Source: an uncultured Muribaculaceae bacterium (GTDB lineage: Bacteria > Bacillota_I > Bacilli_A > RF39 > UBA660). Taken from it: a stretch of 64,000 nt of DNA. The notes beneath the pieces were generated by a model. The model worked only from the letters and a program-made list of their open reading frames with translations, made no database searches and had not been told where the DNA came from. Location of the stretch: the NCBI GenBank assembly GCA_964397485.1, contig CAYNHT010000001.1, positions 273,190-337,189 of the forward strand, given 5' to 3'. The translations under genes were made by a program, and so were the position numbers. Shown here one piece after another: positions 4,244 to 59,236 of the stretch (the stretch's first letter is position 1; each line of letters opens with the position of its first letter).

Positions 4244-4407
4244 TAATATCCCTCCTAGTACTGCCTTAATAAATTATATTATCTTTCTTTTATTTTATTA
4301 CAACTATTTACTATATATATTAGTTTAAAAACAATAAAAAAACTAAACACCATATTATATGTAGTTTAGTTTTAAAATATTATTTATTATTTATTATTTA
4401 TTATTTA

Positions 4408-16200: not shown

Positions 16201-16205
16201 AATGT

Positions 16206-16234
16206 TCATAATTTAATTATATCATATTTTATGC
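16206..16234 (-). promoter_or_regulatory. Sigma-A promoter of the asnB leader.
   Basis: Minus-sense TTGACA, a 17-nt spacer, then TATAAT. Confidence 0.6.
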
Positions 16235-20756: not shown

Positions 20757-20786
20757 AAAAAAGAGAAATTTTTTTCTCTTTTTTTC
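20757..20786. terminator. Bidirectional terminator between the yjcZ-like gene and the giant pilin gene.
   Basis: Hairpin 'aaaaagagaaatttttttctcttttttt'. Confidence 0.65.
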
Positions 20787-25789: not shown

Positions 25790-25934
25790 ATTTAACCTCC
25801 TCATGTATTTTCTTAATTTCTTCTTATAAAGTATAACATTTTTAACTTTTTCGGTCAATTTATTAAAGCATTTATATTAACACTTTTGTTTGTTGGGAAA
25901 ATTTGGTATAATACTTAACCAAGAGGAGAAATTT

Positions 25935-38752: not shown

Positions 38753-39709
38753 TTATATCTTTTTAGAATGACTGATAAACCCTTTTAATTCATCATAAGC
38801 TTGCTTGTGTAAAAATCCTTCATTATATAAAATTTTCATTTCTTCTTTTAACAAATCTTTGTTCATTTTTCTGTGTCTCAAATAAACCTCATTTATCAAA
38901 TCGATATTTAGACTATCCTTATCAAATTCTTTTATAAATTGAGTAGTTGTTTCAATAATTACATCTTTACTTTTTTTAAGTCTATCATTATATTTTCTCA
39001 ATAATAACGAATTACTATATTCTAAATTCAATAGTTCATTATATACTCTTTTCTTTTTGGATAAAAAGATAATATATTGTAAATAAGTTAACATTATTAA
39101 ATCACAAAGATTTGAAATAATTTCTGTATCCTTATCATTTAAGTTTACAATATTATCTAAATAACCAGCAATTATAGATAAAATAAATATATTATTATTT
39201 CTATAATATCCACCTAAAAGCATAGCATCCTCAGGACTAGATTCGATTTTAATTAGCAAATCTTTGAGAGGATCTGGGTGTGCTATATTAGTAAAATATT
39301 TATATACTTCTTGCAAAGTATTTGCCTTATCACTTATACTCGGTATTTTATCAAATACATTAATTCCAAAAAATTTTTCTTGATTATTAATAATTTCTTC
39401 TTTGTATTCAGTGAAAAATTTTTCTTCCTGGTAATGATTGTAATGAACAGTTTTCATTAATAATTCCAATGCCTCGCGTGATAGAGTTATTCCACTTGTA
39501 ATATTACCTTTTCCTAACAATCGATTCGATTCTATTATTATCCTTAAGGATGCACTTAAATTTAACTTTAAATAACTATCTATTTCGTTTTCCATAATTA
39601 TTCTAATAAATTCTTTAATTAACAACCTAATGAATTGATTATTCCATAATTTAATTTTACTATTTATAGGTTGCTTTTTAAATTTATATGGTATATTCGT
39701 TTTTTTCAT
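38753..39709 (-). CDS. Hypothetical protein translationally coupled to hsdS.
   Basis: A TAATG overlap joins the hsdS stop to this ATG. 318 aa with no recognisable motif. Confidence 0.5.
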   Translation of the reverse strand: MKKTNIPYKFKKQPINSKIKLWNNQFIRLLIKEFIRIIMENEIDSYLKLNLSASLRIIIESNRLLGKGNITSGITLSREALELLMKTVHYNHYQEEKFFTEYKEEIINNQEKFFGINVFDKIPSISDKANTLQEVYKYFTNIAHPDPLKDLLIKIESSPEDAMLLGGYYRNNNIFILSIIAGYLDNIVNLNDKDTEIISNLCDLIMLTYLQYIIFLSKKKRVYNELLNLEYSNSLLLRKYNDRLKKSKDVIIETTTQFIKEFDKDSLNIDLINEVYLRHRKMNKDLLKEEMKILYNEGFLHKQAYDELKGFISHSKKI

Positions 39710-40896
39710 TAGACAAACATTTGTTGCAGTAACCCTATTTTTAATTGAGTTAAGTTACTAAACAATTCTCTTTCCTTCTCAATTTTGAAATCAATTATTG
39801 ATAAAAATTTAGAGATTCTTTTTTGTTCAGAAATTATTGGAACACTTATTTGTAATAACCCTAAATCTTTAAATGAGAGACTTTGCCTTACACTTCCAAT
39901 TAGATACCTTTTAATGCCTTCCTTAAACGAGTGGGTGTTTGTAAAATAATTTAGAAAATCTGGATCTAAGTTAGTTTTAAATACAGTATACATTGGACTT
40001 AATACTCCATTGTCATATTCCTTAAGTAAAGCAATGGATCCCACATTTATTCTCGAAGGATTATAAGCAAAATTATTCCTGTTAATTATTTTGTAATTAT
40101 TTAAATTTGTGCTAGCTACCCTTTTATCAAAATAGTCACTTTGTAAAATAAATCCCTCTTTATTAGTAACACTTAATATTTGATAATTTTTGTTTTCTTT
40201 ATTTTTTATTGAACATTGAATGATAAATTTTTTTAATTTCCCGTTTTCCCATTCTGGATATTCAATTCCAGCATAATCTTTAAATCTAATCCCTTGACTA
40301 AATACCTTTTGCATCATCCCTTTTTTATATCGTTCTAATTTGCCAATCTTATCTTCTTGTAATTCTATTCTTTTATCTACTAATGACAAGAACATTGCTA
40401 TTTTATTTTGTTCTTCTAAACTAGGGGTTTTTATTTTTAGTTCTTTTAAATGACTGTTGTATAAGTGTATAACTGATATTCCCTGAGACAATTTAGCTAT
40501 TTCATTTCTATATTTATTATTTAGAGAATATGAAAGGAAGAGCCCGTTTTCTTTAGTTTTAATTATGTTAATATCGCCGCCTATTGCAATTTTATCATCA
40601 GTATAAATACACGAAGCAGTTGCCAAATCTACCGCAGTCTCCCCTGATGATGGAATTAATATATCATTTCTCTCAGAAAATATTAATTTATCATCAGACG
40701 TAAAATTATTTACTTCAGTTATTTTTTCTTTATATTTAGTATATAATTCGCCATACCTCACACATTTGAAAGCACCATTTTCAACAACTGATGCTTTAGA
40801 TACTCCTTTTCCTTTTGATAGTTTTGCTATTTCAGAAAGACTTATTTCTTTCCACTCACCACTGAATTCTTTAAATCTTAAACTTGGAGTATTCAT
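39709..40896 (-). CDS. hsdS: Type I restriction-modification specificity subunit.
   Basis: 395 aa with two target-recognition halves separated by conserved coiled regions. Flanked by hsdM. Confidence 0.85.
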   Translation of the reverse strand: MNTPSLRFKEFSGEWKEISLSEIAKLSKGKGVSKASVVENGAFKCVRYGELYTKYKEKITEVNNFTSDDKLIFSERNDILIPSSGETAVDLATASCIYTDDKIAIGGDINIIKTKENGLFLSYSLNNKYRNEIAKLSQGISVIHLYNSHLKELKIKTPSLEEQNKIAMFLSLVDKRIELQEDKIGKLERYKKGMMQKVFSQGIRFKDYAGIEYPEWENGKLKKFIIQCSIKNKENKNYQILSVTNKEGFILQSDYFDKRVASTNLNNYKIINRNNFAYNPSRINVGSIALLKEYDNGVLSPMYTVFKTNLDPDFLNYFTNTHSFKEGIKRYLIGSVRQSLSFKDLGLLQISVPIISEQKRISKFLSIIDFKIEKERELFSNLTQLKIGLLQQMFV

Positions 40897-42458
40897 TATA
40901 ATTCCTCCAAACCTAACTCTTTTAAATATACATTTAATTCTTTAGTGACCTCAACTATATCTTCTTCTATAAATTTAAGTGCACTTTGAACTTGTTTTAT
41001 ATCAATAGGCTCTTCTTCTTCAAAAGTATTTACATATCTTGGAATATTTAAGTTATAATCATTTTCTTTTATTTCATCTATTGAAGCTACATGTGCATAT
41101 TTATCTATATCTTTTCTATTTTTATAAGCATTCAATATTTTTTCTATATTTTCCTCTGTTAAAGTATTTTGATTTCTTTGTTTTTCAAATTCTTTAGAAG
41201 CATCTATAAATAAAATATCAGTATTGGTTTTACACTTTTTAAACACTAAAATAACAGTTGGTATGGCAGCTCCATAAAATAAATTTGATGGTAATCCTAT
41301 TACTGTATCAATATAATTTTTTTCTACAATATATTTTCTTATTACATCTTCCGAAGCACCTCTAAAAAGAACTCCGTGAGGTAACACCACCGCCATAACA
41401 CCTTTATCATCTAAAAGGTATAACATGTGTTGAACAAATGCATAATCAGCTGTAGATTTAGGCGCTAATTTTCCATAAGCACTAAATCGTTCATCATCCA
41501 AAAATTTAGGATCACTACTCCAATTAATGCCAAAAGGCGGATTGGCAACTATTACTTCAAATTTCATATTTAAATGTTTTTCATAAGGGTTAGTTAAAGT
41601 ATTGCCATTGTAAATGTTAAATCTATTAAAAGGCACTCCATGAAGTATCATATTCATTCTTGCTAAGTTGTATGTTGTAGAAGTTAATTCTTGTCCATAA
41701 AAACTTCCTACATTAGCTTCTTTAGCTACTCTTAGCAATAATGATCCTGAACCACATGTTGGATCATATACTTTTTTTATTTTATCTTGATTCATCGTTA
41801 CAATTTTAGCTAATATTTTTGATACCTGTTGAGGAGTATAGAATTCACCTGCTTTTTTACCTGCAGTAGCAGCGAATTTACTAATTAAATATTCATACGC
41901 ATCACCAAGTACATCTATTTCACTATCACTATGATTAAAGTTGATTTCATTAACTTTTAGCATTATTGTAGCTATTAGTTTACTTTTATCTTTTTCACCT
42001 TTACCCAGTTTAGAAGAATGCAAGTCCATATCTTCAAATAAATTTTCAAAATCATCTTGACTTGTTGTACCAAGAACAGATTCATTCAATTCATTAATTG
42101 CCTTTTCTAACATTGAAATATCAAATTTATTTTGCTTAATTAATTCAATTAATGAAGAATATAAATATTGCGGTTGAATAACATATCCAATTTCACTGTT
42201 ATTAAGTAATTGCTCAATTAAAGCATTTCTATATTCTTTCTTTTCCCACGCTGCTTTATAGGAAATACTATCTGATTTTAACAAAGTTTTTTCCACATAA
42301 TAAAGCAAATTTTCTGATAAATATCTGTAGAATATTAAACCAAGAATATAGTTTTTAAAATCACTTGCTTCCATACTGCCTCTTAAACTATTAGCCATAT
42401 CCCAAAGTTTAGCATGTAATTCTTTTTGTTGAACACTCTGTTTTTGATTTGTTGTCAT
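40896..42458 (-). CDS. hsdM: Type I R-M N6-adenine DNA methyltransferase subunit.
   Basis: 'VIVANPPFG' (NPPF catalytic motif) and 'DPTCGSGSLL' (motif I). Confidence 0.9.
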   Translation of the reverse strand: MTTNQKQSVQQKELHAKLWDMANSLRGSMEASDFKNYILGLIFYRYLSENLLYYVEKTLLKSDSISYKAAWEKKEYRNALIEQLLNNSEIGYVIQPQYLYSSLIELIKQNKFDISMLEKAINELNESVLGTTSQDDFENLFEDMDLHSSKLGKGEKDKSKLIATIMLKVNEINFNHSDSEIDVLGDAYEYLISKFAATAGKKAGEFYTPQQVSKILAKIVTMNQDKIKKVYDPTCGSGSLLLRVAKEANVGSFYGQELTSTTYNLARMNMILHGVPFNRFNIYNGNTLTNPYEKHLNMKFEVIVANPPFGINWSSDPKFLDDERFSAYGKLAPKSTADYAFVQHMLYLLDDKGVMAVVLPHGVLFRGASEDVIRKYIVEKNYIDTVIGLPSNLFYGAAIPTVILVFKKCKTNTDILFIDASKEFEKQRNQNTLTEENIEKILNAYKNRKDIDKYAHVASIDEIKENDYNLNIPRYVNTFEEEEPIDIKQVQSALKFIEEDIVEVTKELNVYLKELGLEEL

Positions 42459-42469
42459 TTTATCACTCC

Positions 42470-43198
42470 TTATTTAGAAAGTAAATTACTTAAATTATTA
42501 GTTCTTTGATCAAGTAAATATGCTTCATCATTTAAATCATAGAATCCATTTGCAATTGCAAATAAAATTATCCCAGTTATTGTTGGTGTAAATGAAAATG
42601 AATCTTGATCAATTTGCCAATTACGAATAAGAGAATTTGCAAATAGACATCTCATGTAGTTTGCTATATTATTTATATTTAGCCTTGTTCTATATTCTGA
42701 CAATTCTTTCATCACACTATTGGTTTGCTTTGTAATTTTTAACCTATTTAATTCTTGACTTAAACCTATATTAGAATTATTTCCATGACATTGTTTAAAA
42801 AATATATAATATAAGTAATAGTGCAATTGAATTTCATAACTACTCATAGAACTTAAAATATTAGTATAATACTTCATCTGATCGTCTTCGCCATTTGTAG
42901 ACCTTGACGATATTAATATACCAGCATAATACTCTTGAATAATATCTTCTTCACATAAACTTCCTTCATAAATAACATCGTTTAAAATTCTCGGATTTAC
43001 ACTTTTACCATCTTCATTTTTCTCAAAATTTATTTCTGGATTTTTATCTATAGCTTTCTGAAATATCTTATTTAAGTTGTCATATCTTTTTTCAAGATCA
43101 AAAGCCAATTTTTTCCCTAACATATCAAAGGAAGGTCCTAATAATTTTTTTAAAGCAATAGTAGATACTCCAGCTACTGTTAAAACATTAACATCCAT
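42470..43198 (-). CDS. Hypothetical protein embedded between hsdR and hsdM.
   Basis: 242 aa with 11-nt gaps to both neighbours. No recognisable motif. Confidence 0.5.
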   Translation of the reverse strand: MDVNVLTVAGVSTIALKKLLGPSFDMLGKKLAFDLEKRYDNLNKIFQKAIDKNPEINFEKNEDGKSVNPRILNDVIYEGSLCEEDIIQEYYAGILISSRSTNGEDDQMKYYTNILSSMSSYEIQLHYYLYYIFFKQCHGNNSNIGLSQELNRLKITKQTNSVMKELSEYRTRLNINNIANYMRCLFANSLIRNWQIDQDSFSFTPTITGIILFAIANGFYDLNDEAYLLDQRTNNLSNLLSK

Positions 43199-43209
43199 TT
43201 TATCACCAC

Positions 43210-45963
43210 CTACATATATTTTTTAACGGTATTTATTATAAAATCTTTTATACTCTGAACTACACCTATTTTTTGTAAAAAGGGCAACTCTATTTCTTTA
43301 TTTATTTCACCAATAGGTATAACACCACTATACTCGAATTCTTCAATAAAGTCACTTAATTTTTCATAAGAAATATTATATTCTTTAGCCATTCTTTCTA
43401 TTTCTCTAACTCTTTCTTGAGTTAAGTGATTGTTATATGCTTCATCGATAGATTTATCCTTATCTAAGACTGGAACAACCTTATTTAGGAAATTTTTAAT
43501 AAGTTCAGATTTGAGTCTTAATTCCTCATTATCTGTTTTATCTATTTTATCCTCAATATCGTTTATATCTTTTCTCAATGTTTCTTTATTACTTAAATCT
43601 AAGTTTTTAATTAAATCTAAAATATATGAAACATTTATTTTGTCAGTGCGCATCAACTCAAGCTCAAAATCTATATCATCTAATATAGTTTCCTCATCTT
43701 TTTGAGCTTGTCTAGCTAAATACGTATACTTGCTCCTATAATCTTGATATTCTTGGCTTGATATTAAATTAACACTTGATTCAAAATTAAATTTTGGAAA
43801 AGTTTCTAATTTAACCAAAATTCTAGCAACTTCTCTAAATGCTAGGACAAATTCTCGTTTATCTTCTTCTCTTTCTAAATTATTAATACTGTCTAACGTT
43901 GGAGCTATCTTTTTAAGTTTAGATAAAGCTTTTTCAAATTGCTCTAAATATTCATCATAGTTTTTCATAAGAACAGTATCAACATTGTTAGTTTGAGAGA
44001 ATAAAGTAATAGCTTCGTCAACTGCTTTTTTTCCCGTTTGGTAGCAGATTATATTGCCATAAGGTTTTGTTGATAATTCCACTCTATTAGTACGAGAAAA
44101 GGCTTGAATTAAATTATGATTATTCAATTTTTTATCAACATATAATGTGTTTAATCTTTTTGAATCAAATCCCGTTAAAAACATATTAACGACTAAAAGG
44201 ATATCAATCTCACCACTCTTTACCTTTTTCGTTACATCTTTAAAGTAACTTTCAAAGGTATCTGTTGAGTAATTTCTATTAAAGAGTTTATTATAGTCCT
44301 TTATAATACGTTCTAAGCTATCTCTCGAATGCTCATCTCTTCCCTCAGAGTCTTCATTATTACCATAAGTAAAAATAGCGGATATTTTTAAATCTTGATT
44401 AATACTTTTAAACATATCATAGTACTTTACTAACATTGGAATGCTTTGAACTGCAAAAATAGCATTGTACATTCTGTTTCTTGTTTTGGTATTATGAATA
44501 TCTACTATATTATTTGCGATTATAGCAATTCTCTCATCTGCCATTAAAGCTTCTTCCGTATCAATAGCTTCTACCCTTTTATCTTCAAGTCCTTCTTTAT
44601 AATTTGTAGTACTAACATAGTCAACAGAGAAACCCAATACATTTTCGTCTTTTATTGCATCTTTTATTAGATATGTATGTAAACACTTTTCAAAGATATC
44701 CGCAGTTGTTCTTCCATCAATTGCTTTGTTTTCGATAAATCTTGGAGTACCAGTAAACCCAAAATATTGGGCTTTTTCAAAATGAACATTTATGACCTTA
44801 TGCATTTCTCCAAACTGTGATCTATGACATTCATCAATAATGAATATTACTTTTTCATTTTTATATTTTTCTAATATACTGTTATATCTTGGATTTTTAA
44901 TAGCATTAGCCATTTTTTGAATAGTAGTTATAATTAAATTTTTGGCTGGATCTTCTATTTGTTTAACAAGCGTATCAGTTTTATCAGTTGTATCAACACA
45001 ACCAGGATCAAATTTATTAAATTCTTCTAAAGTTTGTCCATCTAAATCTTTTCTATCAACTAAGAAAAAAACCTTATTAATATTTGGCTCATCTTTTAAT
45101 AACTGACTTGTTTTAAAAGATGTTAATGTTTTACCAGAACCAGTTGTATGCCAAACATATCCGTTATTATTGGTTTCAGTAGCCCTATTTAATATTTCTT
45201 CTGTTGCATACACCTGATAAGGTCTCATAATCATTAAAGCCTTATCAGTTTCATTTAACACCATATATCTAGCTATCATTTTTGAAATATGACATTTATC
45301 TAAAAAATAAAATGCAAAGTCGCTTAAATTACTTATTCTTTCGTTTTTAACATCAGTCCAGTGAAATGTATGTGAAAAATTCAAATCACTATCACCATTG
45401 GAAAAGTACTTTGTATCTACTCCGTTGCTAATAACAAACAATTGAATATATCTATATAATCCTGTAAATGAATGTTTCCTATATCTTTGAATTTGGTTAA
45501 AAGCTTCTTTAAAATCTAATCCCCTTCTTTTTAATTCGATTTGAACTAAGGGAAGCCCGTTAATTAAAATGGTTACATCATATCGACTGGTATACTTACC
45601 AATAACAGTAGTTTGATTAGTAATTTGAAATAAATTTTTGCACCATTGTTTAGAATTAAACAACTCAATAAAAATAGTTTTCCCATTATCTCGGGTTATA
45701 CTTTGTAATTGTCTTAATTCTTTAGCACTATTAAAAACACCCTTACCAGAGATGATTGTCACTAATCTATCAAATTCCCTGTCTGACAATTCAATTCCAT
45801 CAAGTCTTTTTAAATTAAATTTGTTAACTTGTTTTCTAAAGTTATCAAGAAGATTTTGTTCATTATTTATAATTACTCTTTCGTAACCTTGTTTTACTAA
45901 CTGTTCAATTAAATTATACTCTAATCTTGCTTCGCTTTCATAAGCACTACTCATATTAATCAC
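43210..45963 (-). CDS. hsdR: Type I restriction enzyme R subunit.
   Basis: 'VWHTTGSGKTLTSF' Walker A and 'IIDECHRSQ' DEAH-like box. 917 aa. Confidence 0.9.
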   Translation of the reverse strand: MINMSSAYESEARLEYNLIEQLVKQGYERVIINNEQNLLDNFRKQVNKFNLKRLDGIELSDREFDRLVTIISGKGVFNSAKELRQLQSITRDNGKTIFIELFNSKQWCKNLFQITNQTTVIGKYTSRYDVTILINGLPLVQIELKRRGLDFKEAFNQIQRYRKHSFTGLYRYIQLFVISNGVDTKYFSNGDSDLNFSHTFHWTDVKNERISNLSDFAFYFLDKCHISKMIARYMVLNETDKALMIMRPYQVYATEEILNRATETNNNGYVWHTTGSGKTLTSFKTSQLLKDEPNINKVFFLVDRKDLDGQTLEEFNKFDPGCVDTTDKTDTLVKQIEDPAKNLIITTIQKMANAIKNPRYNSILEKYKNEKVIFIIDECHRSQFGEMHKVINVHFEKAQYFGFTGTPRFIENKAIDGRTTADIFEKCLHTYLIKDAIKDENVLGFSVDYVSTTNYKEGLEDKRVEAIDTEEALMADERIAIIANNIVDIHNTKTRNRMYNAIFAVQSIPMLVKYYDMFKSINQDLKISAIFTYGNNEDSEGRDEHSRDSLERIIKDYNKLFNRNYSTDTFESYFKDVTKKVKSGEIDILLVVNMFLTGFDSKRLNTLYVDKKLNNHNLIQAFSRTNRVELSTKPYGNIICYQTGKKAVDEAITLFSQTNNVDTVLMKNYDEYLEQFEKALSKLKKIAPTLDSINNLEREEDKREFVLAFREVARILVKLETFPKFNFESSVNLISSQEYQDYRSKYTYLARQAQKDEETILDDIDFELELMRTDKINVSYILDLIKNLDLSNKETLRKDINDIEDKIDKTDNEELRLKSELIKNFLNKVVPVLDKDKSIDEAYNNHLTQERVREIERMAKEYNISYEKLSDFIEEFEYSGVIPIGEINKEIELPFLQKIGVVQSIKDFIINTVKKYM

Positions 45964-46370: not shown

Positions 46371-46461
46371 ATACAAAAAAGATTACAATTTTTTGCAATC
46401 CTTCTAATTTCATATTTGGTGCCATTATAGAATTCAGCCCTATGACTCACTTATTAAGAGT
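46371..46461. repeat. Island-boundary module copy 1: A-run/hairpin/T-run terminator plus a degenerate tRNA-Lys 3'-half copy (46427-46461).
   Basis: 'aaaaaagattacaattttttgcaatccttctaatttcatatttggtgccattatagaattcagccctatgactcacttattaagagtg'. Confidence 0.55.
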
Positions 46462-48616: not shown

Positions 48617-49798
48617 TTAAAGGGTGTCATTCCAATAATCAATAACGAACCTATTTACCTCTTTAATTTTTTTCTTGCTTTCCTTGTTTTTAAAATTATA
48701 ATGAAATTTTGGTAAAACATTTTCTCTAACTTCTAGTTTAAACTTCCAACCATCTTCATATTTTCTAGGAAAGTTATCTAGTTTAGTTCTATCATATTTT
48801 GATATTTTTTCTGCTCTGCTAATAAGTCTAGTAAAAGAAAAATTATATTTAAAAGGATGATTTGTCTCATGGTGATGGACTATTTGATTTGTTGGAACGC
48901 CTAATGTCTTTGGAATAAATTGAGCGAAATATTTAGTTCTTTCTTTTTTACATGTACAAAATAATTTTTGTATTTCGTCTGAAGTAATTTCATCATTAAA
49001 TAAAACTAGATTTCTTGAAGATACTACTTGAAACATATTAAGCCATTTTACTTCAGTATCATTATTAATGTTTATTATTTGCTTATTATTGTTTCTAGGA
49101 TACATCTTTTTATCATATAAGATTATAAGTTTAGTTGGTGAAACCGGGAAAAATATTACAATTCCAATTGAAGTCAAACCAACATTGTAAATGCAAAAAT
49201 TATTATAATGTATTATTGGATTGTCACTTGTTATAAGTTTGCTCTTACAAGTATAATTTATTATTAGCAGTTCTAAATCTACAATATATTTCCCCAATTC
49301 TTTATCAGCTAATTCTAAACACATCTCTGGAATTTTATTTAATTTTTCTTTTAAAAAGACGTCTTTGATTTTTTGTTTTTCGCTATCACTTAAACTATCA
49401 AATTTATTTCCATATTTCATTTGAACAGCAACATCAATTGTCTTCCAAGCCATTTCTTTAACTTGTGTTACTCTGGTAAGTGTTCTGTTTTTTTGAAATA
49501 GTATAAACTGCTTTATTTTATTTATTTCATTAATGGTGGGGTAATAAATAGTATTGCCATTAATTTTATTTAATACGCTAGCCCATTCTCCTTCCAAACT
49601 CGATAATTTTCTTTCCCAAATTTCATCTGTTCCATAATAATAATTTTCGTAACATTGGTTCATGTATGGAACATTACTTATTATTTTTTCATTTGAAATA
49701 TTTAGGATACTAATTTGCTTTTTATAATTTGAAAAATATTTTAAATAGAATTGTGGAACATAATGTTGCTTTTTTCTTTTGTTCGACAATTTTACCAC
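48617..49798 (-). CDS. DUF4238-like protein.
   Basis: N-terminal 'HYVPQFYLKYF' resembles the DUF4238 signature. 393 aa. Confidence 0.4.
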   Translation of the reverse strand: MVKLSNKRKKQHYVPQFYLKYFSNYKKQISILNISNEKIISNVPYMNQCYENYYYGTDEIWERKLSSLEGEWASVLNKINGNTIYYPTINEINKIKQFILFQKNRTLTRVTQVKEMAWKTIDVAVQMKYGNKFDSLSDSEKQKIKDVFLKEKLNKIPEMCLELADKELGKYIVDLELLIINYTCKSKLITSDNPIIHYNNFCIYNVGLTSIGIVIFFPVSPTKLIILYDKKMYPRNNNKQIININNDTEVKWLNMFQVVSSRNLVLFNDEITSDEIQKLFCTCKKERTKYFAQFIPKTLGVPTNQIVHHHETNHPFKYNFSFTRLISRAEKISKYDRTKLDNFPRKYEDGWKFKLEVRENVLPKFHYNFKNKESKKKIKEVNRFVIDYWNDTL

Positions 49799-50040: not shown

Positions 50041-50125
50041 AAAAAAAGATTGTGATTTCTCACAATCCCTTATATTCATTGGTGTCCCGTATAGGATTCG
50101 AACCTATGACCCACTGATTAAGAGT
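50041..50125. repeat. Island-boundary module copy 3: terminator hairpin plus a well-preserved tRNA-Lys 3' half (50080-50125).
   Basis: 'aaaaaaagattgtgatttctcacaatc' then 'tggtgtcccgtataggattcgaacctatgacccactgattaagagt'. The reverse complement has an intact T-arm and acceptor strand. Confidence 0.7.
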
Positions 50126-50350: not shown

Positions 50351-51445
50351 TCAAAAATCATTTAGGCATTGTTGTGATTTTAATATATCATTTTCAAGTA
50401 AAACCAAAATATTATTAAGAGCTGTTTCAATTTTAATTTTATAATCGTTATCACTAAAGCTGAACTCTTGTTGAATTAAACCTAAAAACATTAATTTGTT
50501 ATTATAGTATCTTTCGTTGATACTATTTTTCATATCATAATGAAACATACAGTTCCTAAAGTTTCTATTTTTAAAATATTGTTGTCCTTTTATCAAGTCT
50601 TTATATTTTTTAATATCAAATGGGCAATTAACAAATATTTCATTATCACACATTTTAGAAATATCACTATGGATGGTGTCCCATATAATATAAGCAAGTC
50701 TATACCTTAATGTTGATTTGCTAGGTAGTGTATTACAAATTATTACTTGATAATAGTTAATTTTACATATCATATCTAATAGGCTTAAACCTATATTAAC
50801 ATCAATGTCATTTTTAAATAAACCATTACTATTTTTTGTTGTATTGAAATCTTTATATTTTACTAGAAAAGAATTAATATCGATATTGTCATTTTGTTCA
50901 ACAGAAAAGCATTTCATTAAAGCACTTAATACTTGTCCCTGTTCTTTTCCAAAATCAAATAAATGTTGATTTAATTCTTCTTTGTTTTTCAAAAGGGGCT
51001 TATATAATGTAGCGAATAGAAATGTGTTTCCTATCGGTTTAACATCAATGTAGTATACACCTAAATTATCTACTAAATCTTTTAAAAACCTATGTTCCTT
51101 TATAAATGAACTCATATTAATAAAATCTTCATGTGTTTGTTCATTTAATGTATTTATTTTTTCATATCTTTTTTCAAATGGTAATTCATCACTTTTAGTA
51201 CGACCTCTAATGGATTTAATGGCTTTTTTATACCTTAATTCTTTTCTTAATTCAACATTGTAATTTTCTTCTATATAATCAATTATTCCTAAATTTAATA
51301 AGTTTAAGTAATTAAACCAAAACATTGAAATAACAGCATTTTGGGTTTTAGAAATTGTAATGCACATTTTATAAATATCTTTAAGTTCTTCTTTAATAAG
51401 GATGTTAGTATTATCAGTTATATCAATTGTAAGTTCTATTTCCAT
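50351..51445 (-). CDS. Hypothetical protein with a C-terminal R-N-x-x-x-H (HEPN-like) motif.
   Basis: 364 aa; 'FRNCMFH'. Second gene of a two-gene operon. Confidence 0.5.
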   Translation of the reverse strand: MEIELTIDITDNTNILIKEELKDIYKMCITISKTQNAVISMFWFNYLNLLNLGIIDYIEENYNVELRKELRYKKAIKSIRGRTKSDELPFEKRYEKINTLNEQTHEDFINMSSFIKEHRFLKDLVDNLGVYYIDVKPIGNTFLFATLYKPLLKNKEELNQHLFDFGKEQGQVLSALMKCFSVEQNDNIDINSFLVKYKDFNTTKNSNGLFKNDIDVNIGLSLLDMICKINYYQVIICNTLPSKSTLRYRLAYIIWDTIHSDISKMCDNEIFVNCPFDIKKYKDLIKGQQYFKNRNFRNCMFHYDMKNSINERYYNNKLMFLGLIQQEFSFSDNDYKIKIETALNNILVLLENDILKSQQCLNDF

Positions 51446-51499
51446 TAAATTCCCCCTTAATTATTTTAAATATGTTAGTTTTAATTTGTATATACAAAA

Positions 51500-52750
51500 T
51501 TATTTTATATGCTTTTTATCATAATATAAATTATAATTTAATCGTTCCTTAATAGTCTTTTGTGAAACACCAATTTTATTATATAAATAACCAAGAAGTA
51601 AATCTTCTAAAAAATATGAAAACCTAAATAGTTCATCATTTTCCATCTTCTTTAATGGTTGAGAATGGTGATTAAAATAATTCCTACCATCAGCAATTTT
51701 TCTTGATATAGTGTGTATCCTTGTCTTTTTAAATCCCCATATATAATTCAGATTTTTAATCATACTTTCAATTCTATCTGAAAGAGTTATACCAAAACCA
51801 GGTTTTCCATTATCAATCCAAACTTGTTTTGCATTAACATTGTCATATTCTTTTGACATATATTCTATTATTTGATTACAATTTAAAAATCTATTCATTC
51901 TTGATGTTTCTTTTTCTATCATATCTAAGTAAATATCAAATATTGGAGTTATATCTTTAAAAACAACTAAAAATTGTTCATATATAAGTTTAAAATCATT
52001 TTCCAAATCTTCTAATGTCAATACAAATTGTTCATATTCATGTTGTAAAAATTCGTTTTTGTAATCTTTATCTTCAAAGTAAGTTAAATTCATAAACAAA
52101 ATATTATTATCATTTATTTTAATTTCTTTAATTCCAATTATTCTTTTTGAAATTATTCCTATAAAACATTTTAAAGCCCATACATCTTGTATTGTGTTTT
52201 GTAATGTCTGTTTGTTCCTATATTCGATTGTAAAACTCACTCTTTTTTTACATTTATATATTGAGTGTCCATGTGTTGTCAAATTTCCTATAAGTATTGT
52301 AAGTTTATAATCATTAAAATTAAATTCGTTATGTTTATACTTAAATATTGGATTCAAATTTTCGCCATAGTCATAAAAAGGACTTATTGAAAAATTTTCT
52401 AAATCATAGTATTCAAAATTAATTGATTTAATCTTTTTGTTCTTTTTAGAAGTATATTTCATTCCTTCAACAAACATATCAATCTTAAAAGTCATTGAAA
52501 ATAATTCAGTTGCTCCATTTGCAGAACTAGAACTACTTACTAAGTTAAAAAATGTAATGTTCCTACCTTCAATTTTTCCATTTACAATTGGAAATGAGTT
52601 TTTTAGTTTTAAATATGTATCTCTGTCAACACCATCTATTAATTGAAGTATTAATTGATTATTTTTATTTACTAATAAAGCCGAATATTCTTTATTTAAT
52701 AATGATATTTTAAGATTATTATTGTTATATTTTTCTAATAATTCATTCAT
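51500..52750 (-). CDS. Hypothetical protein with a C-terminal R-N-x-x-x-H (HEPN-like) motif.
   Basis: 416 aa; 'GRNYFNHH'. First gene of the operon, 55 nt upstream of the 364-aa gene. Confidence 0.5.
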   Translation of the reverse strand: MNELLEKYNNNNLKISLLNKEYSALLVNKNNQLILQLIDGVDRDTYLKLKNSFPIVNGKIEGRNITFFNLVSSSSSANGATELFSMTFKIDMFVEGMKYTSKKNKKIKSINFEYYDLENFSISPFYDYGENLNPIFKYKHNEFNFNDYKLTILIGNLTTHGHSIYKCKKRVSFTIEYRNKQTLQNTIQDVWALKCFIGIISKRIIGIKEIKINDNNILFMNLTYFEDKDYKNEFLQHEYEQFVLTLEDLENDFKLIYEQFLVVFKDITPIFDIYLDMIEKETSRMNRFLNCNQIIEYMSKEYDNVNAKQVWIDNGKPGFGITLSDRIESMIKNLNYIWGFKKTRIHTISRKIADGRNYFNHHSQPLKKMENDELFRFSYFLEDLLLGYLYNKIGVSQKTIKERLNYNLYYDKKHIK

Positions 52751-52884: not shown

Positions 52885-53094
52885 CTATTTTATTATAGTG
52901 ATTAAATCTCCAGGTTCGCAATTTAAATGATTACAAAATTCTATTATGTATTTAAACGAAATCGATTTTGTTTCTCCTCTAATAATTTTGTTTAAATTTC
53001 TTGAAGTAATATTCATTTGTTGACATAACCAATATTTTGTTTTTCCATTTTTTTCTAATAATTCAACTATATTTAATTTTATCATTACCAACAC
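52885..53094 (-). CDS. XRE/Cro-type HTH regulator.
   Basis: 'TKYWLCQQMNITSRNLNKIIRGE' is an HTH_3 motif. Confidence 0.6.
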   Translation of the reverse strand: MLVMIKLNIVELLEKNGKTKYWLCQQMNITSRNLNKIIRGETKSISFKYIIEFCNHLNCEPGDLITIIK

Positions 53095-53803: not shown

Positions 53804-54859
53804 TTAGTCTGAACTTCTGATTTCTGAATCCCTTATATATTCTTCTTTCAATTCCCAATTCCAACATTTATTTTTCTGAAAAGGTTTTTTGCAAACTATT
53901 TTCCTTGCTTTTTCAATAGATAATCTTTCAAAGCCACTTATATCTGCATTATCTAATATCTCTTTCATAGGTGCAGTATGATTATTAATAGAAGATAGAT
54001 AATCTACTAACCATTGTTTAGCATTTATCGTTGTAGAGTCGTTATCATAGGTAAATAAGCCGTCTATATTTAATGGTTCTCTTTCTTCAAGCCATGCAAT
54101 ACCTTTATCAGTTATTTCAAAAACATATTCCTTTAGGTTCTGTTCACTCGAATAATTACCCTTGATAGGACATAATAACCTTTGTTTTTCATTATCAGGG
54201 TTTCTTGTAATGCCTAAAACAACTCTAGCAGCTGAAGCAAATCCAGCCGAACCCATAGTTTTATATAGTGCTTTAGTATTACTTTTATTCATGTGCATTA
54301 CCCCAATAATAGCGATTTCAAAGTATCTAGCAATTAAACTTAATGGAGTTAATATATCATACACTTGTTTATATTTATCAATGTCAGTTCCATTCATATA
54401 ACTTGTTAAAGGGTCAATAACAATTAGTTTTGGTTGTATCTCGATAATCTTATCTATCAAATTATTTATATCACTTAAATCCAGCCCATTTTCTATACTA
54501 CTATCAATGTAGAAAACATTATTTACATCAGCACCACTATCCTCCAATCTATAAATTGTTATCTGTTCTGGGTCATCTTCAAGATTTTGAAATAATATCT
54601 TTTGTGGTTCTAATACTTGGCTATCAAAAGGAAACGATATACCATTAGATAATCTTGAAGTTATATCACATGTAACAAAACTCTTTCCAAGTCCTGCATC
54701 ACCGATTAATAGGGTTAGATACCCTATTGGTATTTTGCCATTCCACAACCATTTTAACTCCTTCTTTTGAACATTAGCAAAGCATTTAATAACTTGCTCT
54801 TTTTTCAATAAATCTTCTTTAATTTTCTTTTTTATTTCTTCACTAGTTAATTTTTCCAT
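53804..54859 (-). CDS. RecA-fold AAA ATPase (RepA/AAA_25-like replication protein of mobile elements).
   Basis: Walker A 'GDAGLGKSF', Walker B 'LIVIDPLTSY'. RBS 'aaggaga'. Confidence 0.6.
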   Translation of the reverse strand: MEKLTSEEIKKKIKEDLLKKEQVIKCFANVQKKELKWLWNGKIPIGYLTLLIGDAGLGKSFVTCDITSRLSNGISFPFDSQVLEPQKILFQNLEDDPEQITIYRLEDSGADVNNVFYIDSSIENGLDLSDINNLIDKIIEIQPKLIVIDPLTSYMNGTDIDKYKQVYDILTPLSLIARYFEIAIIGVMHMNKSNTKALYKTMGSAGFASAARVVLGITRNPDNEKQRLLCPIKGNYSSEQNLKEYVFEITDKGIAWLEEREPLNIDGLFTYDNDSTTINAKQWLVDYLSSINNHTAPMKEILDNADISGFERLSIEKARKIVCKKPFQKNKCWNWELKEEYIRDSEIRSSD

Positions 54860-54864
54860 TTCAA

Positions 54865-55053
54865 TTATTCTCCTTTATTTCTATTTTCTTTTAACCAATT
54901 TTCTATGTCTTGTTTATCAAACATAATCTTTTTACCAATTCTAAAATATGGTATTTCGCTAGAACGAATTAACTTTCTAACAAATGCTTCACTAATATGT
55001 AAATAGATAGCAACTTCTTTTACATTAAAAACATCTCTAGCCAATATCGGCAC
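54865..55053 (-). CDS. Excisionase-like small HTH (HTH_17) protein; the true start is probably the TTG at 55042-55044.
   Basis: 'VKEVAIYLHISEAFVRKLIRSSEIPYFRIGKKIMFDKQDIENWL' is the Xis/MerR-like pattern. Confidence 0.6.
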   Translation of the reverse strand: MPILARDVFNVKEVAIYLHISEAFVRKLIRSSEIPYFRIGKKIMFDKQDIENWLKENRNKGE

Positions 55054-55320
55054 CTCCTAACTGTATTCTTGCATTTTTTTAGTTACACTCTTGGCAACAA
55101 GCATACTCATTTTATACTAGAGGCAATTGCTTGTTCAAGCAATTTTAGTGAGGTTTTTCAATTGCTTTTGATTGTGTCGTTAATAAAAATTATTAACTTT
55201 TTTAGTGTCCAATTGTCTATTTTAATTTTTATTTAAAATACTATTGACATCTTGTCCAACTGTGTGCGATACTGTCATCAGAACACACAAGTGGAGTTCA
55301 AAAGAAAGGAAGTTAAAGTT

Positions 55321-56031
55321 ATGTCAACCAATACAAACAAAGTAAATCTAAAGTATCAATTATTTGCAGATAGGCTTATAGAATTAAGGAATGAAAGAAA
55401 ATTGACCCAAGATGAAGTATCAAAAGGAATAGGAATTAGTAAATCTTCAATTCAAAAGTATGAAGGTATGACACGATTTCCACAAGGTTACGACTTAATA
55501 GAAATAGCCAATTTCTTTGAAGTATCAGTTGAATATTTACTTGGTAAAAGTGAATATAAAAAAAACCAATACACTAGTCTAAGTGAACTTGGTTTGAATG
55601 ATAGAGCAATAGATACTTTAATAAAAATGAAACAAGAAGTTTATAAAAATGGCAAGTTGGATTATAAACCCTATATGTTCTTAAATGCTCTAAATTTACT
55701 GCTTGATATAGATAACAAAAGATATATTTATAAGATAGGTAAAATGCTAATTCAAAAAAGAGCTGAAGACCAATTTAAAAAGCGAAACAACGAAGAATTA
55801 GAAACATATCAATATAACTTGTTTAGATTAAACAATATGTTTGATAGATTTTTTAAAGAAAATTACGATAAAGTCGATTGTAGTTTCATTAATGAAATAG
55901 AAAGCGAAAAAGAAATAAAAAATTTCTTAACACAAGTTAATATATTAGATAATGATATGGTAAAAAATTGGCAAGATTACTTATTAACACCAATACAAAA
56001 AAAATTACTTGAAAATAAAGATAGTGAATAA
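55321..56031 (+). CDS. cI-like XRE HTH repressor with a C-terminal extension.
   Basis: 'KLTQDEVSKGIGISKSSIQKYEGMTRFPQGYDLIEIANFFEVSVEYLLG'. Divergent from the xis-like gene. Confidence 0.65.
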   Translation: MSTNTNKVNLKYQLFADRLIELRNERKLTQDEVSKGIGISKSSIQKYEGMTRFPQGYDLIEIANFFEVSVEYLLGKSEYKKNQYTSLSELGLNDRAIDTLIKMKQEVYKNGKLDYKPYMFLNALNLLLDIDNKRYIYKIGKMLIQKRAEDQFKKRNNEELETYQYNLFRLNNMFDRFFKENYDKVDCSFINEIESEKEIKNFLTQVNILDNDMVKNWQDYLLTPIQKKLLENKDSE

Positions 56032-56036
56032 AAAAA

Positions 56037-56097
56037 CTCTCTTGCTACTAACAAGAGAGAGAGTCACACAAAAACTTGGACAGCCTTTGTGTGACTC
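56037..56097 (+). terminator. Two tandem hairpins between the repressor and the integrase. They lack a strong T-run, so they may be a terminator or a regulatory structure.
   Basis: 'ctctcttgctactaacaagagagag' and 'gagtcacacaaaaacttggacagcctttgtgtgactc'. Confidence 0.35.
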
Positions 56098-56146
56098 CAT
56101 TATAACAGATTATTTAGAAAAATAAAAGAAATGGAGAAAAAATAAA

Positions 56147-57280
56147 ATGAGTGTTAAATTAATTGATAAAAATAAATATATGATTGAAGCCTTTATCGGT
56201 TATGATAGTAAAGGCAAAAAAATAAGACAATATAAAACTTTCAATGGTACAGAAAGACAAGCAAAAGTTATGGAAAACGAAATGATACAAAAGTATAAAA
56301 ACCAAGTTCTTAATGATATTGATTATACAAAAATCACTTTTGAAGAATTAAGCAAAATTTATATGGAAAGACATGCTAAAAATCTAGCCCCTACAACCTA
56401 TATAGGTTATTCGAAAATGTTAGAAGTTATAAATGATAATTTTGGCAAAAGAAAGTTAACCAATTTAAACCCTTTAATACTAGAAGATTTTTATTGTAAA
56501 TTAAGAGAAAGGCGACAACCTAAAAAACTAACTGAAAATACAATATTACATTATTATGTTTTAATTGGTGCAATACTTAATAAAGCCAAAAGATGGAAGA
56601 TAATAAGCGATAACCCAAATGAAGCAATTGATAGACCTAAAAAGGAAAAGAAAGAATCCAAATATTACAATGTTGAAGAAACCAAGCAGTTGTTAAAAGC
56701 ATTAGAATGTGAACCTTTAAAATATCAGACTTTAATTAGATTAGCAATTGATAGTGGTGCTAGAGTTGGTGAAATATTAGGATTAGAATGGGACGATATT
56801 AATTTTAATTTGGGTTATATTAGTATTAATAAAGTTATATATGCAATTAAGGGTGGAGTTAGAGAAAAAGACAAACCAAAAAATAATAGTTCTATAAGAC
56901 CAATAACATTAATGGAAGAAACTTTAGATTTATTAAAACAATTTAAAGAACAACAAGAAGAAACAAAAATTAAATTAGGTATAAAATGGTTAGGTTGCAA
57001 AAAAGTATTTACTTCCGAAGAAGGTTGGTATATGCACCCTTGCACACCTAGACATATTCTAGGAAAGATAATTAATAAATATGATTTACCAAAAATCAAT
57101 TTTCATTCTTTAAGGCATACTTCGGCATCATTGCAGATAGCATTAGGCATTCACATGAAAATCATTAGTAAAAGACTTGGTCACAGTAGCAGTAGCACCA
57201 CAGATATGATTTATAGCCATGTTTCAAGCACTCTGCAAAGCGAAGTAACTAATAAAATGGGGAAACTACTAAATAGTTAA
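56147..57280 (+). CDS. int: Tyrosine site-specific integrase.
   Basis: C-terminal 'HSLRHTSASLQIALGIHMKIISKRLGHSSSSTTDMIYSHV' carries the R..H..R..Y catalytic residues. An N-terminal SAM-like domain is present. Confidence 0.9.
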   Translation: MSVKLIDKNKYMIEAFIGYDSKGKKIRQYKTFNGTERQAKVMENEMIQKYKNQVLNDIDYTKITFEELSKIYMERHAKNLAPTTYIGYSKMLEVINDNFGKRKLTNLNPLILEDFYCKLRERRQPKKLTENTILHYYVLIGAILNKAKRWKIISDNPNEAIDRPKKEKKESKYYNVEETKQLLKALECEPLKYQTLIRLAIDSGARVGEILGLEWDDINFNLGYISINKVIYAIKGGVREKDKPKNNSSIRPITLMEETLDLLKQFKEQQEETKIKLGIKWLGCKKVFTSEEGWYMHPCTPRHILGKIINKYDLPKINFHSLRHTSASLQIALGIHMKIISKRLGHSSSSTTDMIYSHVSSTLQSEVTNKMGKLLNS

Positions 57281-57303: not shown

Positions 57304-58989
57304 TTAGCCATTTTTATTTTCGTTTTGTATTGCTATTGCAGTAATAAGTCCAAAATATAAAACTAGTAATTTTTCCACATTACCATAATTAAAATCTTTC
57401 ATTTTTAGATTTTTAAAATGTGCTAAATTATTTCTAATTCCCTCGCCTACTTCATTATCATCATTAATTAAATAAAACCTTAACAACTTTATATGATTAA
57501 TTCCTATAATATCATTTATTATAGAATTATCTTTATTCAATAAAACTCCCAAAGAAATAGAATTTTCGTTTATATACCCATTTTCATCGACCTTGCTTTT
57601 ATATATTAATCTCAATGATTTTTCAATCAAACCACATGTAAGCATTTCAATTGAATAAGCAATAGCACTTAATTGAATAGATAATTTTTGTTCTTTATCA
57701 CTTTTAATAATAGAAACATAAAGCAGAATAAGGTTAAATAACATTTCGTTATTTTCAATTATTTCATTTTCCACAAAATTAACAGTGTGATAATTGAATA
57801 CTTTGGTAAGTCTTCTAGTTACTTCAGAAAACAACATATTTGTGAGTTCATCATTATTTAAAATGTAATTTACTTTTAACATATGGTGTTGTAGTTCTAT
57901 ACCTAGAGTGGTCTGTATACTTGGTGTAAATAACTTGTTTGTTTTAACATTTGCAATAGAAACAAAATCAGTAATACTTGGTTTGCTATCTCTAACTAAT
58001 TGGTCAAAGAAATGAGTAAATGTTTTACCATCAGAGTAATTAGTTAAGTATACCAACATCTTTGCTGCTTTTGTTCCAATATCGGATTTTTCTATCATAT
58101 CAACATAACTTTTAATGTTTATTTCGTATGAAAATGATTGCCCATGATTTTGTAAATAATCATCAAGTAAATTGTTCTGTTCATCTAATTTAAATTGCCA
58201 TTCTTTTGCTTTTGAATGCTTTATTGTATCTAAAAATCGAAATAATTTAACAACATAACTTTGACTTATAATAGCATCCTCAACTTTTAAATCTTTCGTT
58301 TGTTCTTCAATATAATTTATGAGAAATGTAACTATTTCTTCAAATTTATTACTAAACCATGCTTGATTTTGTAAAGAAACTAATATATCAAATATATCTT
58401 CCAATCTAAATGTAACTAATTTATTTAATGTGTCATTTGAAAAGAACAGATCTGCTAAATCATTGTTTTCTTTTACAACATTGATAAATCTATCAAAACT
58501 GTCTATTAACAAATGAGAACAATGAGATATTAAGCATTTCCATGTATCTTTATCGATTCCACTTCTATACTTCAAACAATATGTAACAGTTTCAATTTTT
58601 ATATCAATATCATGATGAGTGACATCATCTTCGTATTCGCATATTATTTGAATATTATCATTAATGAAACTAAATATATCTTTTCGTTTATAGTTGTTTA
58701 AGATACCATTAAAAGTAGTAATTATATTACTAAACTCTTGTTTCATTTCATCTTTTACAATCTCAACATAAGTATCGTATTCAACTAATTTATACAAAAA
58801 AATATAATCGATATAGTTTTCTAAACTAGTTATGGAATAATCATTAATAGAGTTATAATAATTAATAATTATACTATTATTTTCTAGTAATTTTGTTATT
58901 TCAATTCCTGTTGCCCAATCATCATAAGTATATCTTCTTAACCCAATGTGTATTTTATTGTCATCTAATAATTTAAATATATTTCCCAT
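57304..58989 (-). CDS. Large hypothetical protein (561 aa) with a C-terminal R-N-x-x-x-H (HEPN-like) motif.
   Basis: 'EGIRNNLAHFKN' lies near the C-terminus. Positioned between int and tRNA-Lys. Confidence 0.5.
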   Translation of the reverse strand: MGNIFKLLDDNKIHIGLRRYTYDDWATGIEITKLLENNSIIINYYNSINDYSITSLENYIDYIFLYKLVEYDTYVEIVKDEMKQEFSNIITTFNGILNNYKRKDIFSFINDNIQIICEYEDDVTHHDIDIKIETVTYCLKYRSGIDKDTWKCLISHCSHLLIDSFDRFINVVKENNDLADLFFSNDTLNKLVTFRLEDIFDILVSLQNQAWFSNKFEEIVTFLINYIEEQTKDLKVEDAIISQSYVVKLFRFLDTIKHSKAKEWQFKLDEQNNLLDDYLQNHGQSFSYEINIKSYVDMIEKSDIGTKAAKMLVYLTNYSDGKTFTHFFDQLVRDSKPSITDFVSIANVKTNKLFTPSIQTTLGIELQHHMLKVNYILNNDELTNMLFSEVTRRLTKVFNYHTVNFVENEIIENNEMLFNLILLYVSIIKSDKEQKLSIQLSAIAYSIEMLTCGLIEKSLRLIYKSKVDENGYINENSISLGVLLNKDNSIINDIIGINHIKLLRFYLINDDNEVGEGIRNNLAHFKNLKMKDFNYGNVEKLLVLYFGLITAIAIQNENKNG

Positions 58990-59065
58990 TTTACACTTCC
59001 CTCGTTATTTAAATTATATCATAAAAAAAGAGTTTCTATTTTAGTAGAACTCTTTATATACATTT

Positions 59066-59141
59066 TGGTGTCCCCAGCAGGACTCGAACCTGCGACAATC
59101 TGATTAAGAGTCAGGAGCTCTACCAACTGAGCTATGGAGAC
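59066..59141 (-). tRNA. tRNA-Lys(CTT).
   Basis: Cloverleaf with anticodon loop 'ctcttaa' and T-arm gcagg/cctgc. CCA is encoded. Confidence 0.85.
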
Positions 59142-59186
59142 ATTTTGAAGAAAAATCACTAGTTTTTTACTCGGTTATCACTCGCC

Positions 59187-59226
59187 GATTAAGAGTCAGT
59201 TGCTCTACCAGCTGAGCTAACGAGAC
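59187..59226 (-). pseudogene. Orphan 5' half of a tRNA-Lys(CTT) (acceptor 5' strand through the anticodon loop).
   Basis: The reverse complement 'gtctcgttagctcagctggtagagcaactgactcttaatc' is complementary (acceptor and anticodon stems) to the 3'-half copy at 50080-50125. Confidence 0.65.
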
Positions 59227-59236
59227 ATATATTTAA

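Follow-up and report, generated by a model that had tools for sequence, protein, structure and literature searches.

Do two adjacent genes that each encode an RNxxxH motif of the HEPN type make one two-part nuclease, or are they two defence genes standing side by side? The question is raised by gene 1 and gene 2, which lie at positions 50,351 to 52,750 of a 64,000-nucleotide (nt) stretch of contig CAYNHT010000001.1 from an uncultured bacterium of the GTDB lineage Bacillota_I. The whole stretch is called the window here, and its G+C content is about 26%. A first-pass annotation had proposed that the two products work as an obligate heterodimer, or that one is a toxin and the other its regulatory paralogue. 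Our analysis favours, with a probability of roughly 60%, two autonomous HEPN-type defence cassettes located in the distal cargo of a tRNA-Lys island, namely a ligand-gated ApeA encoded by gene 1 and a homodimeric gene-2 protein. We regard them as neighbouring defence genes and not as a two-part enzyme, because ApeA works as one protein and gene 2 is usually found alone. The features concerned are listed below (aa, amino acids).

51500 to 52750, minus strand: gene 1, a 416-aa protein assigned to the ApeA family, with an N-terminal ApeA_NTD1 domain and a C-terminal HEPN_Apea domain that contains RNYFNH (R356...H361)
51446 to 51499, minus strand: spacer between gene 1 and gene 2, 54 nt, with the ribosome-binding site AAGGGGGA and without a terminator
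50351 to 51445, minus strand: gene 2 ('geneB'), 364 aa, of a family that has no model, with about 160 helical C-terminal aa that contain FRNCMFHY (R297...H302)
N-terminal part of gene 2, minus strand: about 200 aa with the near-invariant residues R80 and K84

The two co-directional open reading frames (ORFs) of 416 and then 364 aa (52750-51500 and 51445-50351, minus strand) were found as first described, each with its RNxxxH motif. Their spacing is as close as had been claimed and measures 54 nt instead of the 55 nt given. RNYFNH starts at residue 356 of gene 1 and RNCMFH at residue 297 of gene 2. Among the 52 window genes that encode 100 aa or more, 3 have such a motif, where composition would predict about 0.55, and the third carrier is a 561-aa ORF at 57304-58989, within the island shared with gene 1 and gene 2. 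The sequence of the spacer reads as a strong ribosome-binding site, AAGGGGGA, 7 nt ahead of the gene-2 ATG, and a scan between the two genes found no terminator-like hairpin. Co-transcription is therefore plausible, and a single transcript of gene 1 and gene 2 is possible.

The two proteins were also compared with each other as possible paralogues. BLASTP returned no match, and hhalign gave a probability of 0.6% for the pair, the value obtained for gene 2 against the ApeA alignment. Paralogy was rejected, and with no detectable kinship between the proteins the proposal of a toxin with its regulatory paralogue is not supported.

Gene 1 matches the ApeA family

Apart from the motif, neither protein was thought to have a recognisable domain. 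For gene 1 this was wrong, because it is matched by ApeA models of both Pfam and PADLOC. The Pfam profile ApeA_NTD1 (PF18862) was hit with an E value of 1.9e-15 (57.6 bits, cut-off 25.5) and HEPN_Apea (PF18739) with 7.2e-10 (39.9 bits, cut-off 24.4), so that both exceed their curated cut-offs. The first match aligns residues 25-257 with profile positions 20-268 of 271, and the second spans only profile positions 54-135 of 136. The PADLOC candidate PDC-S58 was matched at E 8.1e-21. When the gene-1 ApeA profile was run against the PDB sequences, no match was obtained.

Most of the 24 homologues of gene 1 are 413-417 aa long and carry ApeA_NTD1 and HEPN_Apea, and this short clade comes from metagenomes. 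In an alignment of 17 ApeA-clade sequences the motif residues R356, N357, Y358 and H361 were invariant. Judged by its profile matches, gene 1 is a bona fide HEPN protein of the ApeA family, a kind that is already known. ApeA was reportedly described by Gao et al. in 2020 as a single-gene defence.

Like the studied ApeA proteins, gene 1 has both Pfam domains above the cut-offs, an Rx4H motif (RNYFNH, compared with RNKITH in Ec1ApeA) and a defence or mobile-element context. It differs in length, having 416 aa where the studied E. coli proteins have about 600, with a clade some 180 aa shorter, and in its assignment by PADLOC to PDC-S58, a candidate that is itself a prediction. For homologues from E. 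coli and Pseudomonas the oligomers, the ligand pocket and the RNA cleavage are established, and ApeA acts as a self-sufficient, one-protein, homo-oligomeric HEPN ribonuclease (RNase) defence (bioRxiv 10.64898/2026.01.26.701840, 10.64898/2026.03.20.713152). Homodimers are formed through the HEPN domains, and in the majority of homologues they build up to decamers or dodecamers. An infection-derived ligand, which for Ec2ApeA consists of 5'-phosphorylated deoxydinucleotides, is taken up by a pocket between the N-terminal and HEPN domains, and the activated protein cleaves tRNA anticodon loops (bioRxiv 10.64898/2026.01.26.701840). Ec1ApeA additionally cleaves RNA-phage genomes (bioRxiv 10.64898/2026.03.20.713152).

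Gene 1 and gene 2 do not travel together

The neighbourhoods of gene 2 relatives were analysed in 53 distinct loci, designated by L numbers, 51 of which make up a sample unbiased by ApeA look-ups; a narrower gene-2 clade alignment (A9) added five loci. An ApeA-like neighbour was present in 3 of the 53 (the window, L003 and L056) and in 1 of the 51 unbiased loci. A narrow ApeA hidden Markov model run over all fetched loci found no further ApeA neighbour, and very divergent ApeA-like proteins could escape this model.

The closest gene-2 relative with a known context (L001, 72% aa identity) stands directly after an integrase and is followed by a hairpin. L001 and the window share 80% nt identity over exactly the gene-2 ORF and nowhere else. 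The integrases of the two elements are unrelated, and their AAA_25 proteins are 27% identical. An ApeA gene downstream of the L001 gene 2 was considered and rejected, as only the hairpin and unrelated DNA were found there.

From the side of gene 1 the picture is the same. The ApeA of L053 (69% aa identity) has 76% nt identity to the window over a stretch that begins 30 nt before the start codon and ends with the stop codon, and the spacer behind it has no homology to the spacer between gene 1 and gene 2. In this locus (3804-4361) a NUDIX gene lies 57 nt after ApeA, in an islet between recG and an ABC transporter. In L068 (1892-2920) an ApeA of 67% identity follows a RhuM gene with an 8-nt overlap, in an islet between lepB and ylqF, and in L057 (6350-7339) an Abi_2 gene follows an ApeA of 46% identity. 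By this genomic proxy gene 1 fits a single-gene ApeA, as its relatives at 69%, 67% and 46% identity have neighbours other than gene 2. In L056 (3904-4929) the neighbour of ApeA is a gene-2-like protein. Each of these close relatives of the window ApeA has a different small neighbour (NUDIX, RhuM, Abi_2 or the gene-2-like protein).

The two further loci with an ApeA-like neighbour were compared with the window. In L003 a 468-aa protein with RNYFAH, which matches HEPN_Apea just below the cut-off (E 9e-5), overlaps gene 2 by 8 nt; here gene 2 is 47% identical to that of the window, and the ApeA-like partner about 20%. In L056 the gene order is reversed with a 71-nt gap, and hmmsearch detected the gene-2 relative (E 5e-36). 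All three cases, the window included, belong to one deep clade of the gene-2 tree.

The pair of gene 1 and gene 2 is not conserved as a unit, and the two genes neither co-diverge nor move as one: the closest relatives of each lack the other. An obligate heterodimer does not agree with these neighbourhoods, in which homology stops at single ORFs and an ApeA-like neighbour is found in 3 of 53 loci, nor with the assignment of gene 1 to the self-sufficient ApeA. Homologues that occur singly and in housekeeping contexts had been named as evidence against such a dimer. They do occur largely singly, but in defence and mobile-element contexts, not in housekeeping ones.

The same neighbourhoods bear on a toxin-antitoxin-like relation, in which gene 2 would bind and neutralise or gate ApeA, or ApeA gene 2, as MntA does for HepT. 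The close spacing, the shared direction and the probable common transcript would suit such a relation, and HEPN toxins frequently have a cognate partner. However, gene 2 equals the presumed toxin in size and lacks any domain typical of an antitoxin, such as a nucleotidyltransferase. Close relatives of either gene are found without the other, and ApeA homologues are restrained by their own ligand pocket and not by an antitoxin. We consider this relation very improbable.

Gene 2 defines an undescribed family with a conserved Rx4H motif

No model of Pfam, PADLOC, NCBIfam or PHROGs matched gene 2. Against the PDB sequences, the single sequence and the full-length profile gave no match, and the C-terminal profile gave two chance-level matches to non-HEPN proteins only (E 0.24 and 0.63). 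A single-sequence search found 4 relatives and a profile search 20, and in source records the protein is annotated as 'hypothetical protein'. An exhaustive profile search of 1.84 billion representatives then defined a family of 334 clusters at E<=1e-3 and 196 at E<=1e-10. Nearly all members are 340-390 aa long and match over the full length. All 40 gene-2 loci that came from species-representative genomes are from Bacillota. Among 117 diverse members no consistent match to any Pfam or PADLOC model was found. The gene-2 family is real and undescribed, has a fixed architecture and is covered by no public model library.

Conservation was determined with 146 family representatives of at most 50% pairwise identity. 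The most conserved positions were R80 (99%), K84 (97%), H302 (97%) and G129 (95%), followed by D199 and G322 (93% each) and R297 and Y303 (92% each). The motif of the family reads FR[NS]CMxHY, and a polar residue, N or S, usually follows the arginine. The Rx4H motif is thus kept on both sides of the pair, as the first-pass annotation would have it: R356, N357 and H361 are invariant in the 17 ApeA-clade sequences, and R297 and H302 are present in 92% and 97% of the 146 representatives.

Viral contigs were scanned for both genes. The gene-2 family is nearly absent from them, with one relative found, and no ApeA relative of gene 1 was detected, which makes a phage origin unlikely.

Gene-2 relatives recur in restriction-modification operons and beside other HEPN-motif genes

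The relatives of gene 2 are mostly solo genes. In six loci from several clades they are located inside type I restriction-modification (R-M) operons. HsdS is encoded directly upstream in L019, L020, L027, L033, L039 and L052, with HsdM before it, two genes upstream of the gene-2 relative, in five loci; HsdR is encoded directly downstream in L019, L020 and L051. The prr locus, hsdM-hsdS-prrC-hsdR, is a type Ic R-M locus in which the anticodon nuclease PrrC serves as a second defence line (PMC3710099). Similar to PrrC, gene-2 relatives of several clades occupy the hsdS/hsdR slot in about six loci and have a conserved Rx4H. Gene 2 differs from PrrC in lacking an ABC-ATPase domain, and the two are not similar in sequence. 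Because the family recurs between hsdS and hsdR, the embedded relatives are by analogy probably a PrrC-like second line behind the R-M system. In the window itself, gene 2 stands outside any R-M operon: the nearest type I R-M genes begin about 4.4 kb from it, and two attachment-site (att) scars separate it from hsdR (43210-45963).

In other loci, the neighbours of gene-2 relatives are integrases, resolvases, helix-turn-helix (HTH) genes, PDC-S01, PDC-M49, HerA, a KAP NTPase and Schlafen-type helicases.

A further HEPN-motif gene, named geneC, stands immediately upstream of the gene-2 relative in six loci from several clades, with an overlap or a gap of at most 15 nt. It encodes 354-399 aa with the invariant motif NRx[IVL][RK][DN]NIHY (Rx6H). 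Its copies are at the following positions.

L032, 4582-5781: geneC
L034, 4630-5790: geneC
L045, 4455-5534: geneC
L047, 3923-5020: geneC
L064, 2038-3126: geneC
L065, 2929-3993: geneC

As geneC adjoins or overlaps a gene-2 relative in six loci of different clades, the two represent a conserved two-gene arrangement. A paralogous relation of geneC to gene 2 or to ApeA was unsupported, with hhalign probabilities of 1.7-2.8% and 0.1%, respectively, and HEPN motifs that did not align. Just downstream of the gene-2 relative, L065 (5278-7230) and L066 (878-2830) encode a 650-aa protein with a C-terminal DLRNKYIHG; L065 has three consecutive HEPN-motif genes.

With its ApeA-like and geneC neighbours, the gene-2 family tends to adjoin a second, dissimilar HEPN-motif protein. 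This could reflect a facultative partnership of two HEPN proteins, in which the gene 2 of the window clade works with an ApeA-like protein, as second effector, co-sensor or hetero-oligomer partner, and elsewhere with geneC or alone. In the window (54-nt gap), in L003 (8-nt overlap) and in L056 (reversed, 71-nt gap) an ApeA-like gene does adjoin gene 2 within a single clade, geneC takes the place immediately upstream in six loci of several clades, and the window genes have no terminator between them and a strong ribosome-binding site for gene 2. Nevertheless, the closest relatives of gene 1 and gene 2 each lack the other and homology breaks at the ORF ends, the divergence in L003 is uneven (47% for gene 2, about 20% for the ApeA-like protein), and ApeA is found in only 1 of the 51 loci sampled without ApeA look-ups. 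Moreover, the studied ApeA homologues are partner-free and use both HEPN faces in homodimers, and defence genes cluster in any case. A facultative partnership is therefore unlikely in our view, if worth keeping in sight. Taken further, the 364-aa family would be a HEPN-like defence module that pairs modularly with an unrelated HEPN protein, ApeA-like in the window clade and geneC elsewhere, to give two-nuclease systems, possibly hetero-oligomeric, of which the window operon would be one working example. We find this doubtful.

The C-terminal domain of gene 2 is plausibly HEPN-like

An AlphaFold model of the full gene-2 protein was mostly helical, with a predicted local distance difference test score (pLDDT) of 80.6 and a predicted template modelling score of 0.85. 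Residues 205-364 modelled alone reached a pLDDT of 89.1 and showed helices at 12-35, 41-62, 90-98 and 128-150, plus insertions. The motif is located on the short helix 90-98; two long helices and a short insertion helix come before it, and a short helix and then a long one come after it. The top 60 fold matches of this C-terminal model include LAS1L, three chains of HepT-type toxins, kanamycin nucleotidyltransferase, Csx1 and Las1. Of the claim that both proteins are HEPN proteins, the part on gene 1 stands, and gene 2 is only plausibly HEPN-like, in its C-terminal domain. With its motif and a weak fold match, gene 2 would be a likely but unproven HEPN-like RNase.

Gene 2 was compared with known systems of similar build. 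In common with Abi2/AbiD/AbiF (PF07751, Abi_2), which have some 330-360 aa and are thus of similar size, it has a mostly helical fold and a late RNxxxH, and both occur as solo genes in R-M operons and on mobile elements. An Abi_2 gene takes the equivalent place after the 46%-identical ApeA. However, no sequence or profile similarity was detectable. As a diverged Abi_2 protein gene 2 was rejected at the sequence level, with an hhalign probability of 0.4% and no Abi_2 match among the 117 members. From the minimal HEPN structures (integron-cassette 3jrt; HepT toxins 5yep, 7ae2 and 8xdj) it differs by an identity of only 8-10%, by an extra 200-aa N-terminal domain and by two helical insertions. 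It also has no MntA-like partner, in contrast to the HepT toxins.

Several observations count against two autonomous HEPN-type cassettes. Generic helical bundles score like HEPN folds against the C-terminal model of gene 2, so that its fold match is weak, and in the fold comparison of the full-length model nothing specific was matched. Neither sequence nor profile comparisons linked gene 2 to a HEPN family, and none of the 117 members matches a HEPN Pfam model. The top conservation of the family, R80 and K84, lies in the N-terminal domain and is unexplained by a simple HEPN model. On the side of gene 1, the literature holds no experiment on the short ApeA clade and mentions PDC-S58 as a prediction only. 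Finally, the recurrence of ApeA-like neighbours, in both orders and in one clade, is not easily pure coincidence.

The points on gene 2 would also fit a protein that is not a nuclease. Its Rx4H could serve structure or binding in a helical protein that may regulate, counteract restriction or defence, or bind RNA or nucleotides as a non-catalytic HEPN protein like MtlR. This would agree with the missing homology to HEPN models, with the weak, generic fold matches and with the strongest conservation lying outside the motif, at R80 and K84; some HEPN domains are indeed non-catalytic (PMC3710099). On the other hand, catalytic HEPN domains are marked by a conserved R and H and by a polar residue that follows the R (PMC3710099). 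In the gene-2 family each of these two residues is present in over 90% of the 146 divergent representatives, and the residue next to the R is usually polar. The slot between hsdS and hsdR is, in addition, the position of the anticodon nuclease PrrC. A gene 2 without nuclease activity is thus improbable.

Proposed action of the two proteins

Two autonomous cassettes remain our preferred explanation. The domain identities, the conservation, the genomic independence and the contexts on which it is built were observed directly. By analogy to its studied homologues, gene 1 would form homodimers, possibly larger rings, through its HEPN domain. It would be inactive until an infection-derived ligand fills the pocket between the N-terminal and HEPN domains, and it would cleave RNA on activation, the studied homologues cutting tRNA anticodon loops or phage RNA.

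For gene 2 we infer RNase activity, dimerisation, triggers and a defence phenotype. The protein may be a metal-independent RNase of the HEPN type, in which the C-terminal helical domain dimerises and R297 and H302 of two subunits make up the active site. Its N-terminal domain, with R80, K84, N140, T141 and D199, may sense infection or keep the enzyme off. The gene 2 of the window is more likely an autonomous gene of the abortive-infection type, possibly co-transcribed with ApeA, than a PrrC-like back-up. We class gene 2 with the HEPN-like abortive-infection proteins, as a new member that no model covers; that it is a HEPN-like RNase is likely but unproven.

The pair is the distal cargo of a tRNA-Lys island

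The first-pass annotation had placed the pair as defence cargo just inside an att boundary, and this was borne out: the boundary is a copy of the 3' half of tRNA-Lys(CTT) at 50079-50125. The features of the island and its surroundings are as follows.

59066 to 59141, minus strand: intact tRNA-Lys(CTT), the integration target of the island (ARAGORN; Rfam tRNA, 68.7 bits)
57304 to 58989, minus strand: 561-aa ORF between integrase and tRNA-Lys, with C-terminal GEGIRNNLAHF (motif count, translation)
53804 to 57280: island backbone of AAA_25, HTH_17, HTH_3 and integrase (Pfam)
56147 to 57280, plus strand: tyrosine integrase (Pfam)
55252 to 56031, plus strand: HTH_3 repressor-like gene (Pfam)
54865 to 55053, minus strand: Xis-like HTH_17 gene (Pfam)
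53804 to 54859, minus strand: AAA_25 ATPase (Pfam)
52885 to 53094, minus strand: HTH_26 gene of the Cro/C1 type, 69 aa, directly upstream of gene 1 (Pfam, E 2.8e-12)
50079 to 50125: 3'-half copy of tRNA-Lys(CTT), 47 nt, 79% identical to the intact gene, the distal attachment-site scar
46415 to 46461: more decayed 3'-half copy of tRNA-Lys, 74% identical

The two copies belong with the intact gene to a direct-repeat family, D1 (46415-46461, 50079-50125 and 59065-59111), of which the exact 45-mer occurs once in the window. From the tRNA-Lys to the first copy, the order is the 561-aa ORF, integrase, HTH_3, HTH_17, AAA_25, a putative lipoprotein, HTH_26 and the pair. Since this order places them at the far end, gene 1 and gene 2 represent distal cargo of a tRNA-integrated element. 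Two metagenome assemblies show the same island arrangement. The 69-aa HTH_26 gene may be a local regulator and is a putative member of the gene 1/gene 2 unit; it is likewise found upstream of gene 1 in the metagenome copies L060 and L061. Searches of Pfam, NCBIfam, PHROGs and PDB gave no match to the 561-aa ORF, which is possibly the third cargo gene of the HEPN type in this island.

Between the two scars, the segment 46462-50078 has no integrase and encodes a DUF4238 protein (48617-49798), a 277-aa protein and a 157-aa hydrophobic ORF. This segment resembles what is left of an earlier insertion at tRNA-Lys, as tandem accretion would produce. Beyond the scars, the type I restriction R subunit gene hsdR (43210-45963) adjoins a gene for an Abi_alpha protein (42470-43198), and the ORFs at about 38753-42458 below Abi_alpha are probably hsdM and hsdS. 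The region from 38 to 59 kb of the window is a defence hotspot beside tRNA-Lys.

On the other side of the target, between tRNA-Lys and tRNA-Val, a fragment at 59176-59228 is 88% identical to the 5' half of tRNA-Lys and may be a further integration or excision scar. Elsewhere in the window, a T-box leader (15971-16211, minus strand; Rfam RF00230, 123.6 bits) lies upstream of a 543-aa ORF (14336-15967) and adjoins a tRNA Glu-Asn-Ile cluster, and a very large ORF at 20786-25858 (minus strand) encodes 1690 aa from a TTG start.

Implications

Gene 1 is a short ApeA of the Bacillota type, from a family whose mechanism was solved only recently in E. coli, and it could reveal how much of the approximately 600-aa ApeA sensing requires. 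Gene 2 leads to a family of several hundred clusters with a conserved RNase-type motif and steady defence or mobile-element contexts, including the PrrC slot. As it is unmodelled, conserved in its motif and found in defence contexts, it is a candidate, testable at low cost, for a new anti-phage system of a single gene in Firmicutes. The recurring partners, ApeA-like proteins and geneC, would, if functional, be examples of cooperating HEPN nucleases and of wider interest. The main value of the locus is thus a new candidate defence family with recurring HEPN neighbours, and not a heteromeric nuclease.

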